This document shows positions 13,656-55,524 of a stretch of 64,000 nt of DNA, piece after piece. A model generated the notes under the pieces. The model was not told where the DNA came from. It saw nothing but the letters and a program-made list of their open reading frames with translations, and searched no databases. Source of the DNA: Methanocaldococcus indicus (GTDB lineage: Archaea > AGJL01 > Methanococci > Methanococcales > Methanocaldococcaceae); contig NZ_CP186926.1 in assembly GCF_049554935.1 (NCBI RefSeq), forward strand, positions 1,152,001 to 1,216,000. The letters are read 5' to 3'. The number at the start of each line of letters is the position of its first letter. Position 1 is the first letter of the stretch. Both the position numbers and the translations under genes were made by a program.

Positions 13656-13672
13656 ATACCTTAACCTCCTAA

Positions 13673-14375
13673 GACACTGTCAAGTTAACGACTTCAACCA
13701 ATTGTAGAACATCATGAAACTTTTAATCCAGCTAACAACTGTATCGAATTTGCTGTTATTAGGAAACCTATTATAAAATGCTTTAGTTCTTCGTTTGAGT
13801 AGTGAGAAAAAGCTTTCTACACAATTTCTCAGTCCGAATCTGACTCTTTCAAATTCTAAACCCAATCTTTGCAATGCCCACGGATACCATCTTCCACCAT
13901 CGACCAAAATCTTCGGCTTATTAGAGCAAAATTTTAATATGCTCTTAACGAATAATATAGTATCGAGGTAGTTTCTTGTTTCAGAAACATAAACTCCCAA
14001 GCACTCTTTCGATTCAACATCAATAGCAGACCATACGTAAATAACTTCATTTCCAATCTTTAGTTTGGTCTCATCGATTGCAATTGCGTATCTTTCCTTT
14101 CTTTCAGGTTCGTTTAAAACCTCTTTAACCTTGTGATAATAAGTCCTAACCGACTCATGGCTTATACTTTCGAATTGGGAAAGAAACAAACTTACTTTCC
14201 TCAACGATAGTCCAAAGTAATACAAAATCCCAGCTAAGATTTTAACTTCTATCGACTTCTTATTCCTTTTAAAAATCTTCTCCTCTTCGATTCTCTCCTT
14301 TAAGACTTCTATCGTGAGCTTCATATTTTACTATTTTTTATCGATATATTAATAAAAGCTTAACTTGACACTCTC
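13673..14375 (-). mobile_element. IS6-family insertion sequence (ISMja1-like), copy 1, 703 bp, intact 214-aa transposase at 13680..14324
   Basis: Terminal IRs GACACTGTCAAGTTA (13673-87) and TAACTTGACACTCTC (14361-75). DDE motifs IAIDETK, VDGGRWY and NCVES. The stop codon lies inside the right IR. Confidence 0.93.
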
Positions 14376-15482: not shown

Positions 15483-16808
15483 ATGAAAATTTCAGTTATT
15501 GGAACTGGATATGTTGGTATAATACAAGCAGTTGGTTTAGCAGAGTTTGGTTTTGAAGTTGTAGGAATAGATATTGATGAATCAAAAGTTAAAGCATTAA
15601 ATAGTGGAGAATGTCCTTTGTATGAAGAAGGATTAGAAGAGCTATTAAAAAAACATGTAAATAAAAATTTAACTTTTACAACATCTTATGAGCCAATAAA
15701 AGACTCTGAAGTTATATTTTTATGTGTTGGGACTCCACAAGATAAAGATGGTAATGCTGATTTAAGATTTTTATTTTCAGCAGTTGAAAAAATAAAAGAA
15801 ACAATAGATAAAGAAGATTATAAAGTTATTGTTATAAAATCTACTGTTCCAGTAGGAACAAATAGGAAAGTGAAAGAACTCTTAAGAGGTTATAATGTTG
15901 ATGTTGTTTCAAATCCTGAATTTTTAAGGGAAGGAATTGCTGTTTATGACTTTTTCAATCCAGAGAGAATAATTTTAGGATTTGAAAGTTTAGATAAGAA
16001 AAAGCCAATTGAGATTATGAAAAAAGTTTATAATTATTTTGAAGGGAAAAATGTTCCATTTGTAATAACAAATTGGGAAACAGCAGAGTTAATAAAATAT
16101 GCATCAAATGCATTCTTAGCAACAAAAATATCATTCATAAATGAGATAGCAAAATTAGCAGATAAAGTAGGAGCTGATATAAAAAACATAAGCTATGCTA
16201 TGGGATTAGACCCAAGAATCGGTAATAAGTTCTTAAATGCTGGAATTGGTTATGGTGGAAGCTGTTTCCCCAAGGATGTCAAAGCATTAATAAAACAATT
16301 TGAAAACAATAATATAGAGCCGATATTAATTAAAGCTACGGATAGAGTTAATGAAGAACAAATAAAATGGTTCTTTGAGAAAATTAAAAATTACTATGGA
16401 AATTTAAATGGAAAGACCTTTGCTATCTTAGGTTTGGCTTTTAAACCAAATACTGATGATTTGAGAGAAAGTAGGGCTATAAAATTGATAGATATGGTTT
16501 TAGATAGTGGAGCAATTGTTAAAGGGTTTGATTATGTGGAAAAAGCAAGAGAAAATACAACTAATATGTATAAATTGAATAAGTCAAAGGCATTTTACGG
16601 CTATAATTTGTATGTGTTGGATGACTTGTATGAGACAGTTAAAGATGTCGATGGAATAATAATAACTGTTGAGTATGATTTTAATAAAGAAGATTGGGAA
16701 AAAATTGCAAATTTAGTTAAAGAAAAAGTTGTATTTGATGGAAGAAATGTTTTGGATGTTAAAAAGATTAAAAAATTAGGATTCAAATATTATGGGGTGG
16801 GTAGATGA
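15483..16808 (+). CDS. ugd: UDP-glucose 6-dehydrogenase
   Basis: GTGYVG, CVGTP, KSTVPVG, SNPEFLREG, GYGGSCFPKD and GLAFKPNTDDLRES motifs. Confidence 0.93.
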   Translation: MKISVIGTGYVGIIQAVGLAEFGFEVVGIDIDESKVKALNSGECPLYEEGLEELLKKHVNKNLTFTTSYEPIKDSEVIFLCVGTPQDKDGNADLRFLFSAVEKIKETIDKEDYKVIVIKSTVPVGTNRKVKELLRGYNVDVVSNPEFLREGIAVYDFFNPERIILGFESLDKKKPIEIMKKVYNYFEGKNVPFVITNWETAELIKYASNAFLATKISFINEIAKLADKVGADIKNISYAMGLDPRIGNKFLNAGIGYGGSCFPKDVKALIKQFENNNIEPILIKATDRVNEEQIKWFFEKIKNYYGNLNGKTFAILGLAFKPNTDDLRESRAIKLIDMVLDSGAIVKGFDYVEKARENTTNMYKLNKSKAFYGYNLYVLDDLYETVKDVDGIIITVEYDFNKEDWEKIANLVKEKVVFDGRNVLDVKKIKKLGFKYYGVGR

Positions 16809-16873: not shown

Positions 16874-17575
16874 GAGAGTGTCAAGTTAAGCTTTTATTAA
16901 TAATTGATAAAAAATAATAAAATATAAAGCTCACGATAGAAGTCTTAAAGGAGAGAATCGAAGAGGAGAAGATTTTTAAAAGGAATAAGAAGTCGATAGA
17001 AGTTAAAATCTTAGCTGGGATTTTGTATTATCTTGGACTATCGTTGAGGAAGGTAAGTTTGTTTCGTTCCCAATTCGAAAGTATAAGCCATGAGTCGGTT
17101 AGGACTTATTATCACAAGATTAAAGATGTTTTAAACGAACCTGAAAGAAAGGAAAGATACGCAATTGCAATCGATGAGACCAAACTAAAGATTGGAAATG
17201 AAAATATTTACGTATGGTCTGCTATTGATGTTGAATCGAAAGAGTGCTTGGGAGTTTATGTTTCTGAAACAAGAAACTGCCTCGATACTATATTATTCGT
17301 TAAGAGTATATTAAAATTTTGCTCTAATAAGCCGAAGATTTTGGTCGATGGTGGAAGATGGTATCCGTGGGCATTGCAAAGATTGGGTTTAGAATTTGAA
17401 AGAGTCAGATTCGGACTGAGAAATTGTGTAGAAAGCTTTTTCTCACTACTCAAACGAAGAACTAAAGCATTTTATAATAGGTTTCCTAATAACAGCAAAT
17501 TCGATACAGTTGTTAGCTGGATTAAAAGTTTCATGATGTTCTACAATTGGTTGAAGTCGTTAACTTGACAGTGTC
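16874..17575 (+). mobile_element. IS6-family element copy 2 (702 bp), transposase start codon mutated ATG to ATA
   Basis: IRs at 16874-88 and 17561-75. Reads ATA AAG CTC where copies 1 and 3 read ATG AAG CTC. Carries an L-to-R change (SLFRSQ). Confidence 0.93.
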
Positions 17576-18277
17576 TGTAGATATATTAAAAGATTATTTA
17601 GATGAAGATGATTATATTGAGTTATTATCAAAAACTAAGAGTAAAGAAGAATCAATAAAAAGAATAATCAATAGTGGGCTAAGTAGAAGCAAAAAATTTG
17701 AATTACTTTTGTCAATAGATAAAGATGAAGCTATAAAATATGCCACTAAAAATAGGTTGTATAATGACCTCATTAAATATTATTATTTTGCTAATGAATA
17801 TGATAAAGTCGTTGAATTATTTAGAAAATATAAATTCAGATACATCCCAAACATTATATATGATGTCAATTATTAAAGTGAATCCTGAGGATAAAGATGA
17901 TTTATTAAGAAAACTATTCAAATATGCAGATTCATATACTAAATATTACATTGCTATGGAATTAAATGATAAAGAATTATTGCTTAAAACCTATAAAGAG
18001 TTAGTTAAATATGATATTCATAGACATGAATTAATAAATGTAATAAGAAAACTTTTATTAGATTATGATGAGAAATCCATAATTCCCAATAATAAAAAAT
18101 TTGATTTATAAATATATTGATGAAAAGACACAGTTTGGTTATGAATCTGCTGTTTCTTTATTAGAGATTCTAAAGGAACATGATGAAGATGAATTTAAAA
18201 ATCTTTTAGAAGAAATAAAAAAGAATCACTTTAGAAAAAGAAATTTAATGTCACTAATATCAAAAAAGGGCCGGTAA
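17576..18277 (+). pseudogene. Frameshifted C-terminal remnant of a helical protein, probably the tail of the SWIM zinc-finger gene at 35658..36039
   Basis: Begins abruptly at the IS end. Segments in changing frames end ..GYESAVSLLEIL..FKNLLEEIKKNHFRKRNLMSLI, which resembles the C-terminus of SWIM-family proteins. Confidence 0.55.
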
Positions 18278-50883: not shown

Positions 50884-53121
50884 ATGGTTGTTAAAGAGAT
50901 TATTGAAGGGGCAAAATTAGCATTAAATTTAGCAAGAGATTTAGCAAATAAAGAAGATGACAATCTAAAATTAGAGTATCCTGGGACTTCTTACAACTTA
51001 CCTATAATCTATGGTTTATTAGGAAAAGAAATAAAAACAGTTAAAGATTTAAAAGAGTTATTAAATTCATTGGAAGTTAAAGATGAAGAAACTTTGGAGA
51101 ATGCTTTAAATTCTGGGGTTATAACTTTAATAGCTGCTGAAGCAATTGAAGCTCTAAAATATGCAAAAGGTAATCCTTACACTGATACAACAGGATTTAT
51201 TCCTGATGAAATTTTAAGAGGTTTGGGAGTTCCATTAGTTGAAGGGAAGATTCCAGCTATTTTAGTTGTTATTGGAAAAGTAGGAGATAAAGAAAAGCTA
51301 AAAAAATTAGTTGAAGATATAAGAAAAAGAAATATTTTGGCTTTATTTGTTGGAGAAATAATTGATGAGCTAAAAGATGCAAATATAGATTTGGGGTTAG
51401 ATACTCTTTTAGTGCCTATTGGTAGAGAAATAACTTCTGCTGCTCATGCCGCTAATTTAGCAGTTAGAGCACCTTTAATTTTTGGAAATATTAAACCAGG
51501 AAATACTGAAGAAATTATTAGTTATTTAAAAGATAGAGTGCCAGCAATAGTTATAGCTTTGGGAGATTTAGATAATATAACTCTCTCAGCTGGAGCAGGA
51601 TGTATAAAAGCAGGAATTCCTGTTATAACTAATAATAAAGTCCCAGTTATAGAAAAAGCTTTGGAGTATTCTGATATTGATAATATAGTTGAGAATGCCT
51701 TAAAAATGAAAGATATTGAAGTTAAAGTTAAAGAGTTTAAAATTCCAGTATCAGTAGGACCGATGAATGAAGGGGAGAGGATAAGGAAGCCCGATATGTA
51801 TGTAGAATTAGCTGGACCAAAGAGTTATGGATTTGAGTTAGTGAGAGTAGATAACAACGCAGAGGATAAAGTTGAAATTATAGGGAAAGATTTAGATGAA
51901 TTAGAGGAAGGAAAAGCTCATCCTTTCGCTATTATTGTTAAAGTTAAAGGTAAGGATTTGGAAGAAGATTTAGAAGGAGTTTTAGAGAGAAGAGTCCATG
52001 AATTTTTTAACTATATAGAAGGGGTTATGCATTTAAATCAAAGAGACCAAGTGTGGATAAGGGTTTCAAAAGATGCTTTTAAAAAAGGTTTAAGATTAAA
52101 ACATATTGGTGAAGTTATTAAAGATTTGTTTAAAGAGCATTTCCCAATAATTGAGAGTTGCGAAGTAACTATAATAACTGACCCCGAAAAAGTTAAAGAA
52201 GAATTAGAAAAAGCCAAAGAGATATATAAGAAAAGAGACGAAAAAACCAAATCAATTAGAGAAGAGGATGTAGATGTATTTTATGGTTGTATAATGTGTC
52301 AAAGTTTTGCTCCAACACACGTATGTGTTATAACTCCTGATAGACCTTCATTATGTGGAAGTATAAACTATTTAGATGCGAGAGCAGCTGCAAAGATAGA
52401 CCCTAATGGACCAATATTTGCAATTGAAAAAGAAGAATGTTTAGATGAAAAATTAGGAATTTATTCAGGGGTTAATAAAGTTGTTGAAGAATATAGTCAA
52501 GGAGCTGTTAAACAATTTGCTCTACATTCATGTTTAGAAAGTCCATGCACATCCTGTGGATGTTTTGAGGCGGTAGCGTTTTATATTCCAGAAGTAGATG
52601 GATTTGGGATAGTGCATAGGAACTTTAAAGGAGAGACACCATTAGGAATACCGTTTTCAACATTAGCGGGACAGTGTAGCGGAGGAAACCAAGTTCCTGG
52701 ATTCGTTGGAATATCAATTAGTTATATGCAATCTCCTAAATTCTTACAAGGAGATGGTGGATGGAACAGAGTAGTATGGCTACCGAGGGAATTAAAAGAG
52801 AGAGTTAAAGAAGCGATACCAAAAGAGATATATGATAAGATAGCAACAGAGGAAGATGTAAAAAATACTGATGAACTTAGAAATTTCTTAAAAGAGAAAG
52901 GACATCCAGTAATTAATCTATGGGAAAAAGAAGAAACAAAAGAAGAAGTTGAAGAAAAAGAAGAACCTAAAAAAGAAACTGAAACTAAAAAGGTTGAAGA
53001 GAAAAAAGAAGAAGATAAAACTATGGACTTTGTTAAGTTTGTTGAACTTCTACCTCCTGGAATCAAAATAGAGCTCACTAATGTAATAATAAAAGCTGAT
53101 AAAATTATTATTAAGAAATAG
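50884..53121 (+). CDS. cdhC: Acetyl-CoA synthase (ACDS beta / AcsB, long form with N-terminal domain)
   Basis: EGERIRK, LERRVH, CIMCQSFAPTHVC, CTSCGCFE and GGWNRVVWLP motifs. Confidence 0.9.
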   Translation: MVVKEIIEGAKLALNLARDLANKEDDNLKLEYPGTSYNLPIIYGLLGKEIKTVKDLKELLNSLEVKDEETLENALNSGVITLIAAEAIEALKYAKGNPYTDTTGFIPDEILRGLGVPLVEGKIPAILVVIGKVGDKEKLKKLVEDIRKRNILALFVGEIIDELKDANIDLGLDTLLVPIGREITSAAHAANLAVRAPLIFGNIKPGNTEEIISYLKDRVPAIVIALGDLDNITLSAGAGCIKAGIPVITNNKVPVIEKALEYSDIDNIVENALKMKDIEVKVKEFKIPVSVGPMNEGERIRKPDMYVELAGPKSYGFELVRVDNNAEDKVEIIGKDLDELEEGKAHPFAIIVKVKGKDLEEDLEGVLERRVHEFFNYIEGVMHLNQRDQVWIRVSKDAFKKGLRLKHIGEVIKDLFKEHFPIIESCEVTIITDPEKVKEELEKAKEIYKKRDEKTKSIREEDVDVFYGCIMCQSFAPTHVCVITPDRPSLCGSINYLDARAAAKIDPNGPIFAIEKEECLDEKLGIYSGVNKVVEEYSQGAVKQFALHSCLESPCTSCGCFEAVAFYIPEVDGFGIVHRNFKGETPLGIPFSTLAGQCSGGNQVPGFVGISISYMQSPKFLQGDGGWNRVVWLPRELKERVKEAIPKEIYDKIATEEDVKNTDELRNFLKEKGHPVINLWEKEETKEEVEEKEEPKKETETKKVEEKKEEDKTMDFVKFVELLPPGIKIELTNVIIKADKIIIKK

Positions 53122-53123
53122 AT

Positions 53124-53158
53124 GAGCATGCCTCCCTATAAAAGGGTTCGGCATGCTC
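53124..53158 (-). promoter_or_regulatory. Archaeal SECIS element in the selD 3' UTR
   Basis: The minus strand reads GAGCAUGCC-GAA-CCC-UUUUAUA-GGG-A-GGCAUGCUC. This is a 9-bp lower stem, a GAA/A internal loop and three C-G pairs, matching the Methanococcales SECIS consensus. Confidence 0.93.
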
Positions 53159-53225
53159 TCAAACATTAAAATTATTTCTGATTTATTTTATTATTAGATT
53201 TTTAACTTTATTATTAGTTTTTGAT

Positions 53226-53242
53226 TGCCCAGCACCGAGCTT
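53226..53242. repeat. 17-bp inverted-repeat arm (selD stop codon / 3' UTR)
   Basis: TGCCCAGCACCGAGCTT is the exact reverse complement of 54195..54211. Confidence 0.95.
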
Positions 53243-54257
53243 AAACTTCTAAAACTTTAACATCTTTACTTAAATAAGCTTTATTCCCTTTTCTTTTTAC
53301 TTCTCCAACTTCAAATGCATAAACTACTTTTTCTAATTCACTAATTAAATCATCCTTATACTCTCTTTTTGTAGATATTAACAAACCTCCTGCAGTTTCA
53401 GCAGAATAACCTTCTAATAATGGATGCCCAAAATTTTTACTTAGTTCTGGTGTCCCTCTAATACATGGTAGAAGATTTATTTCAATATCTACACCACTAA
53501 ATTTAGCAATATCATTTGCATGCCCTAATAAACCAAATCCAGTAACATCAGTTAAAGCATTTGCTATTTTATCTCCAACTTTTTTCTCAGCTTTTCTTAA
53601 AGCCAATAAGGATTTTCTATTAGATGTTGTCATTAACTCAATTGCTTTATTTATTATATATTCAGCTTCTTCTTTTGATATATTTAACATATCTCTAAAT
53701 TCTTCTGGCACTCTACTCAATGCCATTGCCGGCTGTGTTCCTAATGGTTTAGTTAAAATTAAGACATCTCCCACATTAGCTCCTTTTTTTGTTAATAGTT
53801 CTTCCTCACGTCCAACTCCTGTAACTGCTCCACCAATTAATGGCCAGGGATTCAGTATAGTGTGTCCTCCAACAATTGATGTTTTATCTTCTCTACAAAA
53901 ATCTTGGAATCCTTTTAACATATCCTTAGCCATTTGTATAGGCATCTTTTCAGGAATTCCTACAATTGCAAGAACACCAACAACATCTAAAAATCCCATA
54001 GCATAAATATCACTTAAAGAGTTGCAAGCAGCAATTTTTCCCTGAATGTAGGGATTATCTACAATTGGAGTAAAGACATCTACTGTCTTAGCAATTAATA
54101 AATTACCTCTTTTTATAACAGATGCATCATCTCCTAAACCAACAACACAATCTTTTAAATCTTCATCTAAAACTATGCCTTTAACTAAATTTTCAAGCTC
54201 GGTGCTGGGCAGCTTACAAGCTCATCCATGTAGTTTAACCATCTCAGTTAATCTCAT
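53241..54257 (-). CDS. selD: Selenide, water dikinase (selenophosphate synthetase), selenoprotein with UGA-Sec at codon 12 (54222-54224)
   Basis: ATG at 54257 reads MRLTEMVKLHG-U-ACKLPSTELE, then GDDAS, DVFTPIVD, NSLSDIYAMG, GGHT, LTKPLG, TDVTGFGLLGH and ETAGGLL. A SECIS lies downstream. Confidence 0.95.
54195..54211. repeat. 17-bp inverted-repeat arm (selD coding, 11 nt downstream of the Sec UGA)
   Basis: AAGCTCGGTGCTGGGCA is the exact reverse complement of 53226..53242. Confidence 0.95.
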
Positions 54258-54438: not shown

Positions 54439-55524
54439 TTAATAAATAATTTTATCTAACATATCAAATTCTAAAGCTAATTTTATTTCTCTTGCTATTC
54501 TTTGACCCATACTCATTGGTTCATTATATAGTATGTAAGAATAAGGAGAACCATTCATAAAGCTGTTTGTTCCTCCATCTATTCTTGCAGACATTTCAAA
54601 GACAACCAACTCTAAATTTTCTGTGCATAAACTTTGTAAGCAGAAAGGACCAACAATTCCAGGAGGAACTAACTCCTTGGCTGATTTAACTAATTTATCT
54701 CCCATATCAAACACTAATGGTAATAAGCTCTCTCTTATCACTACTGGAAAGTTCCCAGTTATTACATAACTTGGTTCCATATCTAACTCTAACTGTTCCT
54801 TAGCAGGAATTCTAACTAATCCATCAATATTGCTCTCATATCTTCTATCTATTCCTAAAAGCTCAACTTCATTTTTTAATGGTGAATAGAAATAATGTAG
54901 GCAATAGTTGGCTCCAACAACATACTCCTCTATATGTGCTCTTTCAATATCTTCATCATCTAAAATTCCTCTTTCTTTTAAAAGATTTGCTTTTTTGTAA
55001 AACTCTTCTTTTGAATTAGCTATGAAATAACCTTTTCCTCCTCTTGCTCCTGGAAATTTTACTATAACTGCTCTATCTATCTCATCAGGAGAATTAAATT
55101 TTTTAGGAATTCTTATATTTCCATTCTCTAAAATTTTTCTTTCTAAATCTCTCTCAGCTTCCCATCTTAATATCTTCCTATTTCCAAACATTGGAACTAA
55201 AAAGTTATTCTCAATATTATCTAAACCACAATATGCAATAAATGAACCATGAGGGACAACTATGGCATTTAACTCTCTTAATTTCTCTTGAACTTCTTCA
55301 TTTTTTATATCTTTAAAGTCATCTATGTAAATAAATTTATCAGCCACTCTAAACCTTTTGTATGGAACATCTCTCCCTTTTACAGTTATACAGACTGTTG
55401 AAAATCCTTCTAACTTAGCTCCTTTTAATATATGGAGAGCTGTATGACTTCCTACTGTTGCAATAGTTATTTCATCCCTATTGTATGTATCTAAAATTTC
55501 AAGAATTTCTTCTTTCTTTATCAT
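54439..55524 (-). CDS. purP: FAICAR synthetase (formate-dependent, ATP-grasp)
   Basis: GSHTALHI, PHGSF, GARGGKGYF, RYESNIDG and SARIDGGTN motifs. Confidence 0.92.
   Translation of the reverse strand: MIKKEEILEILDTYNRDEITIATVGSHTALHILKGAKLEGFSTVCITVKGRDVPYKRFRVADKFIYIDDFKDIKNEEVQEKLRELNAIVVPHGSFIAYCGLDNIENNFLVPMFGNRKILRWEAERDLERKILENGNIRIPKKFNSPDEIDRAVIVKFPGARGGKGYFIANSKEEFYKKANLLKERGILDDEDIERAHIEEYVVGANYCLHYFYSPLKNEVELLGIDRRYESNIDGLVRIPAKEQLELDMEPSYVITGNFPVVIRESLLPLVFDMGDKLVKSAKELVPPGIVGPFCLQSLCTENLELVVFEMSARIDGGTNSFMNGSPYSYILYNEPMSMGQRIAREIKLALEFDMLDKIIY

Follow-up and report, generated by a model that had tools for sequence, protein, structure and literature searches.

The selD locus

The stretch of DNA analysed here is a 64,000-nucleotide (nt) piece of the Methanocaldococcus indicus genome (contig NZ_CP186926.1, positions 1,152,001 to 1,216,000; hereafter the window), and it carries selD, the gene for selenide, water dikinase. 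The messenger RNA (mRNA) of selD holds an in-frame UGA for selenocysteine (Sec) close to its start and a selenocysteine insertion sequence (SECIS) in its 3' untranslated region (3'UTR). The subject of this analysis is a long-range complementarity that joins the sequence just after the Sec codon to the sequence at the stop codon, next to the SECIS. The gene assignment is well supported, as the SelD protein matches NCBIfam NF010705 with 591.5 bits (cut-off 291) over residues 1-338 and TIGR00476 with 233 bits (cut-off 125). After the UGA the mRNA reads GCU UGU AAG C, followed by UGCCCAGCACCGAGCUU at 54211-54195. A genome pattern scan places the hairpin GAGCAUGCC-GAA-CCC-UUUUAUA-GGG-A-GGCAUGCUC on the selD strand, 82 nt 3' of the stop, and by position and shape it is an archaeal SECIS of the methanogen type. 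Among 18 orthologues its GAA is invariant but for one AAA. The selD 3'UTR region including the SECIS matched no family in Rfam. Coordinates are collected in Table 1.

Table 1. Coordinates of selD, its parts and neighbours, and of related elements at other loci (window positions unless a contig or locus is named).
Feature	Location	Strand	Remarks
selD (selenide, water dikinase) coding sequence	53241..54257	-	338 codons; in-frame UGA is codon 12; translation with TGA=U
selD start codon AUG	54257-54255	-	
Sec codon UGA (codon 12)	54224-54222	-	motif LHG-U-ACK; preceded by CAU GGA
selD stop codon UAA	53243-53241	-	overlaps AAGCUCGGUGCUGGGCA (53242-53226)
Long-range helix, 5' arm UGCCCAGCACCGAGCUUGAA	54192..54211	-	within codons 16-22; 13 nt from U of UGA
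Long-range helix, 3' arm UUUAAGCUCGGUGCUGGGCA	53226..53245	-	overlaps UAA stop
A/U-rich spacer, 3' arm to SECIS	53159..53225	-	67 nt; 14-95 nt in orthologues
Archaeal SECIS hairpin	53124..53158	-	9-bp basal stem, GAA/A asymmetric loop, CCC/GGG apical stem, 7-nt loop
purP-like gene	54442-55524	-	flanks selD
Acetyl-CoA decarbonylase/synthase alpha/beta gene (cdh)	ends at 53121		convergent to selD
Orphan SECIS hairpin	C1:978133-978170 of G000		outside the window; no selenoprotein reading frame nearby
Whole orphan element (loci L033, L035)	G000:C1:978117-978239	-	anti-hdrA box, anti-fwuB box, SECIS, then T-run
Discrete small RNA downstream of fwuB	L039:1504-1611 (G004)		X13 raw-read pile-up and adapter read-through

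The selD helix

An inverted-repeat search recovers the two selD arms as 20-nt segments, 95% complementary and 946 nt apart, which pair through 17 Watson-Crick base pairs (bp), one G.U pair and two A-U pairs. This agrees with a preliminary description of the DNA, which had given a perfect 17-nt complement extending to 20 bp with one G-U pair. Its distances also hold: the helix was said to start 11 nt after the UGA, and 10 nt intervene, so that the 11th nucleotide is the first paired base; the SECIS was put at about 68 nt past the 3' arm, and 67 nt are measured. The coding arm further contains the five consecutive G/C-ending codons CTG CCC AGC ACC GAG that had been pointed out there. The third positions of selD codons 16-21 are G or C in five of six cases, against 14.5% gene-wide. 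The post-UGA sequence has its partner 946 nt away and is not a local stem-loop of the open reading frame (ORF) of the kind seen in a bacterial SECIS.

The complementarity stands out from its surroundings. The 17-mer has two matches in the window with up to 3 mismatches, where 0.01 are expected, and none of 100 shuffled sequences gave two or more. Across the 1.44-Mb genome only these two sites are found at up to 2 mismatches, and with no further copies at that threshold the arms do not appear as a repeat family or as terminal inverted repeats of a mobile element. Moreover, among the 10 inverted pairs of the window (exact seed of 14 or longer, separation up to 3 kb) the selD pair is the sole G+C-rich one.

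The duplex is also predicted to be stable at high temperature. Its computed energy changes from -40.5 kcal/mol at 37 °C to -18.7 at 80 °C and -14.1 at 90 °C. When the 1191-nt selD mRNA is folded as a whole, the minimum free energy (MFE) structure includes 16 of the 17 core pairs at 37 °C and all 17 at 80 °C, with a mean pair probability of 0.96, and it folds the SECIS as expected. RNA data of a relative contain the corresponding selD stretch with both arms and the SECIS (L008:1150-2450): of 11 runs from 4 studies that contain it, two RNA runs reach a word share of 1.00 and four others one of at least 0.98, values that are contig-based and hence attest presence only.

Conservation and covariation in Methanococcales

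The comparison covered five genus groups, namely Methanocaldococcus (g1), Methanothermococcus (g3) and the groups g2, g4 and g5, with the genome of the window designated G000. Searching with the SelD protein retrieved selD from 39 of the 40 Methanococcales genomes, G000 counted. TGA occupies the identical selD codon in all 29 orthologous loci that include the N-terminus and in all nine further loci. The helix counts leave out L017, L029 and L030, which are cut at contig ends, and the 3' flanks of L082 and L032 extend for only 56 and 95 nt, respectively.

Within g1 (16 loci) and g5 (2 loci), every one of the 18 evaluable loci has a selD helix of 17-22 bp. In every case the distance from the U of the UGA to the start of the 5' arm is 9-13 nt. 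The start of the 3' arm varies from -2 to +23 nt relative to the stop, and pairing is kept despite the shift, with the SECIS following 14-95 nt 3' of this arm. Recurrence of the helix in 18 separately assembled genomes rules out an assembly artefact, which had been named beforehand as an alternative.

Covariation was evaluated in an alignment of the 18 helix-bearing mRNAs. Ten of the 19 helix pairs never vary and six change on both sides, with 96.8% of the cells paired; these counts overstate the number of independent events, because the genomes are related. Several pair types occur at single positions, for example GC, UA and CG at one pair. Sliding the helix partner by 1-3 columns lowers the paired share to 31-40%, and for the whole 30-pair structure of helix and SECIS stems none of 500 shuffles matched the observed pairing or covariation score. 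The basal stem of the SECIS, used as an internal yardstick in the same alignment, has compensatory changes in six of its eight pairs. Judged from these alignments, the selD arms are a selected long-range pairing whose covariation is as strong as that of the SECIS stem itself. The earlier suggestion of selection on the pairing, drawn from codon use and base composition, is thereby borne out by the covariation, by the conservation in g1 and g5 and by the MFE structures predicted at 37 and 80 °C.

The same design in fwuB and hdrA

The search was extended to other selenoprotein mRNAs, as the preliminary description had proposed; pairings were found for fwuB and hdrA, and not for vhuU, fruA and vhuD. 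Throughout the order, the fwuB 3'UTR sequence 5' of the SECIS pairs with the message 24-32 nt after the UGA. In the genus comparison, which leaves out g4 (L089), the cis helix of fwuB measures 25-26 bp in g5 (L087, L088), consists of two 10-bp halves in g3 (L090) and has 11 bp in g2 (L091). Together with 13-22 bp in g1, these lengths would follow the printed thermophile trend described below for fdhA1. The selD helix is found in g1 and g5 only. The hdrA gene of one g5 genome (L094, G039) forms a 25-bp cis helix at +32 with a complement in its 3'UTR. At 17 nt past this complement lies a GAA/A hairpin framed by AUGA...UGAUG, a SECIS in the gene's own 3'UTR; complement and hairpin occupy the stretch 138-213 nt after the stop.

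A guide box 5' of the SECIS is common to selD, fwuB and hdrA. The UGA is codon 121 in fwuB and about codon 208 in hdrA, placing the coding arm 360-620 nt inside the ORF. This architecture of guide box plus SECIS, pairing 9-32 nt after the UGA, is encountered independently in fwuB and hdrA. Among the vhuU, fruA, HesB-like and vhuD genes of G000, with UGA-SECIS distances of 73-379 nt, no helix exceeds 10 A/U-rich pairs, and the helix would appear to be confined to genes with a long UGA-SECIS distance.

In G000, the spacer between hdrA and vhuD contains only the short hairpin GAUGA-GGGGCAU-U-AUGCCC-UGAUGA, which has no GAA/A. A degenerate SECIS and a k-turn-like motif are both possible readings of this hairpin.

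An orphan SECIS element with two antisense boxes

Here and below, what is said of cited papers refers to those parts of their text that were available. Sharing of a SECIS downstream of the neighbouring vhuD (frhD) by hdrA has been described in Lokiarchaeota (PMC4989117) and suggested as possible for Methanococcales (PMC11227280). In G000, pairing of hdrA with its own downstream region through the vhuD SECIS amounts to at most 11 A/U- or G.U-rich pairs. For fwuB of G000, whose A/U-rich 3'UTR measures 57 nt, the scan detected no SECIS pattern on the fwuB strand within 1.5 kb. The pattern scan of G000 yields six SECIS hairpins, five of which belong to vhuU, vhuD, the HesB-like gene, fruA and selD; the sixth is an orphan. 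A covariance model built from 22 selD SECIS sequences (R1) was also tried for the genome SECIS census and was dropped for pattern scans as too selD-specific. It scored selD at 51.8 bits, vhuU at 19.1 and fruA at 14.3, gave a 7.4-bit partial match for vhuD and missed the orphan element.

The orphan hairpin is preceded by two sequences complementary to other mRNAs. About 35 nt upstream of it lies an anti-hdrA box, complementary to the hdrA mRNA over 24 bp and a further 10 bp, whose pairing in G000 begins 9 nt from the U of the hdrA UGA (C1:96157). An anti-fwuB box adjoins it, with a 17-bp complement located 31 nt after the fwuB UGA (C1:1019210). No Rfam family matched the orphan element. The gene downstream of it in G000 is PII-like by its translation.

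The element is present in 15 of 17 Methanocaldococcus genomes, and both misses are assemblies that are 86% complete. Eleven genomes, one of them with a partial locus, have it directly 3' of fwuB; in G004 (L039) its distance from the stop is about 55 nt. In 9 genomes among those listed with the element it lies approximately 7.2 kb downstream of the hdrA UGA. It is unlinked from fwuB in G000 (41 kb), G003 (3.8 kb) and G015 (about 450 kb), and in G008 it lies on another contig; in G000 it is 880 kb away from hdrA. With hdrA, all 11 Methanocaldococcus genomes evaluated show a pairing of 22-24 bp at +9 to +11, a count that leaves out G009, G005 and G002, where the hdrA antisense matches span 33 bases at 91% identity. 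With fwuB, the pairing is 13-22 bp long and lies at +24 to +31 in all 14 genomes evaluated, including L038-L049. The element co-varies with both targets, unlinked genomes included: each of four fwuB box variants is matched by its own element, and the hdrA variants of G003, G013 and G000/G008 are matched likewise.

A small RNA in a relative

At locus L039 of G004, raw reads of the RNA run X13 are confined to the SECIS element. Their depth is 0-2 over the fwuB ORF, 154 over 1457-1560, 224 over 1561-1664 and 0 beyond. Adapter sequence follows positions 1603-1611 in 387 reads among those listed, and eleven reads have loose letters before position 1504. The adapter read-through and the confinement of the reads point to a discrete RNA no longer than about 100-108 nt that ends in a U-tract after the SECIS, accompanied by shorter 3' fragments. 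Its 5' end is only roughly placed, and the X13 library alone does not fix the strand. A putative A/T-rich TATA-like box is located about 25-35 nt upstream of position 1504. In the standard RNA library X4, contig depth is about 1e5 over the ORF and drops to about 2e3 in L039 1561-1664, though such contigs cannot reveal transcript ends.

A broader proposal can be built on these observations. The SECIS of hyperthermophilic Methanococcales would be RNA-guided, with a box that pairs 9-32 nt past the UGA and so picks the codon. In Methanocaldococcus, an RNA of about 100-110 nt with two boxes and one SECIS would act in trans on hdrA and fwuB, as the first natural trans-acting SECIS, and selD would do the same in cis. 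We regard this proposal as evenly poised between right and wrong. So far, the small RNA lead rests on comparative evidence and one RNA run.

Proposed mechanism

For selD, the two arms would form an intramolecular long-range helix in the mRNA of Methanocaldococcus and g5, closing a loop of about 950 nt. As the SECIS lies 3' of the guide in all cases and the pairing is antiparallel, the SECIS, 14-95 nt 3' of the 3' arm, would emerge at the UGA-proximal end of the duplex. It would then lie within some tens of nucleotides of a ribosome holding the UGA in its A site. The helix would serve as a tether or guide, raising the local concentration of the SECIS and its bound factor or factors, with aSelB.GTP.Sec-tRNA, at the recoding site. 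In this manner it would offset a UGA-SECIS distance of about 1.0-1.1 kb at growth temperatures near 80 °C. Any pausing of the ribosome would be secondary and would concern only helices beginning at +9 to +13.

We consider it likely that the selD helix acts as such a tether in the RNA, carrying the SECIS to the UGA. The layout of guide and SECIS is common to selD, fwuB, hdrA and fdhA1, and the tether is therefore favoured. From the sequences we infer that the helix would form in vivo and that Sec insertion would gain from it. The preliminary description had the duplex deliver SECIS-bound aSelB, which conflicts with the report that archaeal SelB does not bind its cognate SECIS in vitro (PMC8211752). 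It had also assumed pausing with the UGA exactly in the A site. On geometric grounds this is possible for selD (helix at +9 to +13) and, among the other helices, for that of Methanocaldococcus hdrA, but exact A-site pausing is no shared feature, because the helices of fwuB and of g5 hdrA lie at +24 to +32.

Several points weigh against the tether. The orthologue comparison was positive in g1 and g5 and negative elsewhere: in g2, g3 and g4 none of the 18 evaluated loci has the selD helix, the best candidates being 8-13 scattered A/U- or G.U-rich pairs. Sec12 and a 3'UTR SECIS are nonetheless retained in these three genera, and in the 9 g3/g4 loci scanned the SECIS follows the selD stop by 2-16 nt. 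Reporters in M. maripaludis show a 3'UTR SECIS working at 520-679 nt without such pairing (PMC9622424). When fdhA-type complementary flanks were placed in a reporter, total activity was not raised and the mRNA was about three-fold lower (PMC11881835). Furthermore, translating ribosomes must melt the selD helix at each passage. Synonymous-site conservation in the coding arm is only modestly raised (0.69 vs 0.59, rank 34 of 324 windows), and the covariation counts are inflated by kinship, as said above. Extension of the 18 selD helices by G.U pairs compared with A.C mismatches gives +13 vs +10 pairs, which does not discriminate; with counts so nearly equal, the sequence alone is no proof that the pairing acts in the sense RNA. 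The mesophilic M. maripaludis reporter also did not require the fdhA-type flanks (PMC11881835). On the other side, activity per mRNA in that reporter was two-fold higher with the flanks (PMC11881835). Since three genera keep Sec-SelD without the helix, it is no necessity, and the comparison points to an enhancement that is plausibly related to temperature.

Other explanations

The helix could be mainly a translational roadblock or regulator just after the UGA, giving time for slow Sec decoding or coupling SelD output to selenium. The helices of selD and Methanocaldococcus hdrA begin 9-13 nt from the U of the UGA, which, by ribosome footprints and helicase position, is near the mRNA entry site when the UGA occupies the A site, and the duplex is predicted to be stable at 80 °C. 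Yet the helices of fwuB (+24 to +32) and of g5 hdrA (+32) are too distal to stall a ribosome with the UGA in the A site. The partner arm, moreover, always adjoins a SECIS, which is superfluous for a pure roadblock, as a local hairpin would suffice. We therefore judge a roadblock to be an unlikely main role. A service to mRNA stability or processing is similarly improbable; here the helix would close the message end to end at high temperature or offer a site for a double-strand-specific RNase, with its proximity to the UGA incidental. The selD arms do bracket nearly the entire ORF, the helix is limited to g1 and g5 of the five genera sampled, and fdhA-type flanks shifted the reporter mRNA downward (PMC11881835). 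But in fwuB and hdrA the helix sits after an internal UGA, with the coding arm well inside the ORF, so that the mRNA ends are not closed and the link is to the UGA. No such helix is seen where the SECIS of a selenoprotein gene is close by, and the coupling of UGA and SECIS in four genes is hard to account for by stability alone.

A role at the level of DNA deserves far less credence. The arms would then be an inverted repeat around selD serving as a signal for inversion, replication or recombination, or a product of gene conversion, with no RNA function. They are indeed a perfect inverted repeat around a gene, and the G.U versus A.C test is not in favour of RNA. However, a length of 20 bp is short for recombination, the 17-mer belongs to no repeat family with its 2 genome sites, and the homology stops sharply at the arms. 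Unlinked loci at distances of up to about 880 kb obey the same logic, with compensatory changes, and one such partner is seen as a discrete small RNA in the raw reads of a relative. A chance match, finally, has practically nothing in its favour beyond the fact that single matches can occur. The shuffles, the 2 genome sites, the helix in 18 of 18 loci and the 6 compensatory pairs exclude it as an explanation of the selD complementarity in all reasonable measure.

Relation to known systems and significance

The closest precedent is the 5'UTR SECIS of fdhA1 in Methanococcales, whose flanks complement the ORF a short way past the Sec codon (Peiter et al., RNA Biol 2025, PMC11881835). In M. maripaludis the flanks measure 7 and 10 nt and place the SECIS 43 nt 3' of the UGA. 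The pairing recurs throughout Methanococcales, with longer flanks at higher growth temperatures, and the authors proposed a helping role in recoding (PMC11881835). As in fdhA1, the sequence adjacent to the selD SECIS complements the ORF just after the UGA and would bring the SECIS near. Unlike the two short flanks of a 5'UTR SECIS, selD has a 3'UTR SECIS with a single arm of 17-22 bp on its 5' side; on the other side of the SECIS the convergent cdh gene adjoins, and no second flank arm is found there. The preliminary description had supposed the pairing to be undescribed. In the literature searched, nothing closer to the selD pairing was found than the analogous one in print for the fdhA1 5'UTR SECIS, so the supposition is only partly right. 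The M. maripaludis sps SECIS has been tested in vivo by others (PMC11881835). The available text of that paper contains no selD term, and what it says on sps mentions no such pairing.

The bacterial SECIS of the fdhF type is a structure a few nucleotides 3' of the UGA, which brings the Sec-specific factor to the A site (PMC8211752, PMC2933860). In selD, too, RNA structure is placed within a few nucleotides 3' of the UGA. The bacterial SECIS, however, is a local ORF hairpin bound by the C-terminal domain of SelB, whereas the selD sequence is one strand of a duplex with its partner about 950 nt off, and the SECIS is a separate GAA/A hairpin. Archaeal SelB is without the C-terminal domain that binds the bacterial SECIS. 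No SBP2 homologue is known in archaea, and archaeal SelB failed to bind the SECIS in vitro, according to the available text of PMC8211752 and PMC2933860.

Long-range and local structures 3' of a recoding codon are familiar elsewhere. In plant RNA viruses, a 3'-proximal sequence pairs just 3' of the recoding codon over kilobases and stimulates recoding, for instance in the -1 frameshift of luteoviruses and in readthrough of the tombusvirus type. The eukaryotic Sec redefinition element is a stem a few nucleotides after the UGA that stimulates recoding. These cases belong to another domain of life and to other recoding events, and they involve no SECIS delivery. The fwuB/hdrA element resembles base-pairing guides such as trans-acting small RNAs and C/D-box RNAs, in that antisense boxes carry a functional RNA module to a target mRNA; the selD pairing differs from trans-acting guide RNAs by being in cis.

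Capture of host SECIS elements by viral mRNAs through antisense tethering has been put forward as a hypothesis (PMC4997913). The available text of PMC10778597 names no natural trans-acting SECIS. Supplements aside, the selD pairing, the fwuB/hdrA guide and a trans-acting SECIS go unmentioned in the available text of PMC8211752, PMC9622424, PMC11881835, PMC2933860, PMC4989117, PMC5054222, PMC11227280, PMC10778597 and PMC3432209.

For the long-distance cases, a covarying duplex would offer a concrete and testable RNA-only answer to how SECIS and UGA communicate over about 1 kb or more. The 2025 observation on fdhA1, made in one unusual gene, is now widened to selD, fwuB and hdrA. Taken together, the pairings suggest that SECIS targeting is programmable by base pairing, even in trans. 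Should this be true, engineered archaea could be given guide-plus-SECIS RNAs that direct selenocysteine to UGA codons of choice, and textbooks could no longer describe the SECIS as a cis-only element.

Other features of the window

Apart from selD, the window contains an inverted repeat of 674 nt with 98% identity (13672-14345 and 16903-17576). The repeat consists of two copies of a transposase-like ORF (13680-14324 on the minus strand and 17023-17568 on the plus strand), named from their translations. Between the copies lies an ORF of 441 amino acids (15483-16808), which is UDP-glucose/GDP-mannose dehydrogenase-like by translation. A dehydrogenase-like ORF bracketed in this way by repeats resembles the layout of a composite transposon.

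A relaxed SECIS pattern additionally picked up an identical 38-nt stretch at 15903-15940 of the window and at G000:C1:247639-247676. As it is A/U-rich, has an AAA loop and is situated within the dehydrogenase-like ORF, it is probably no SECIS and was set aside as, in all probability, a duplicated gene segment.

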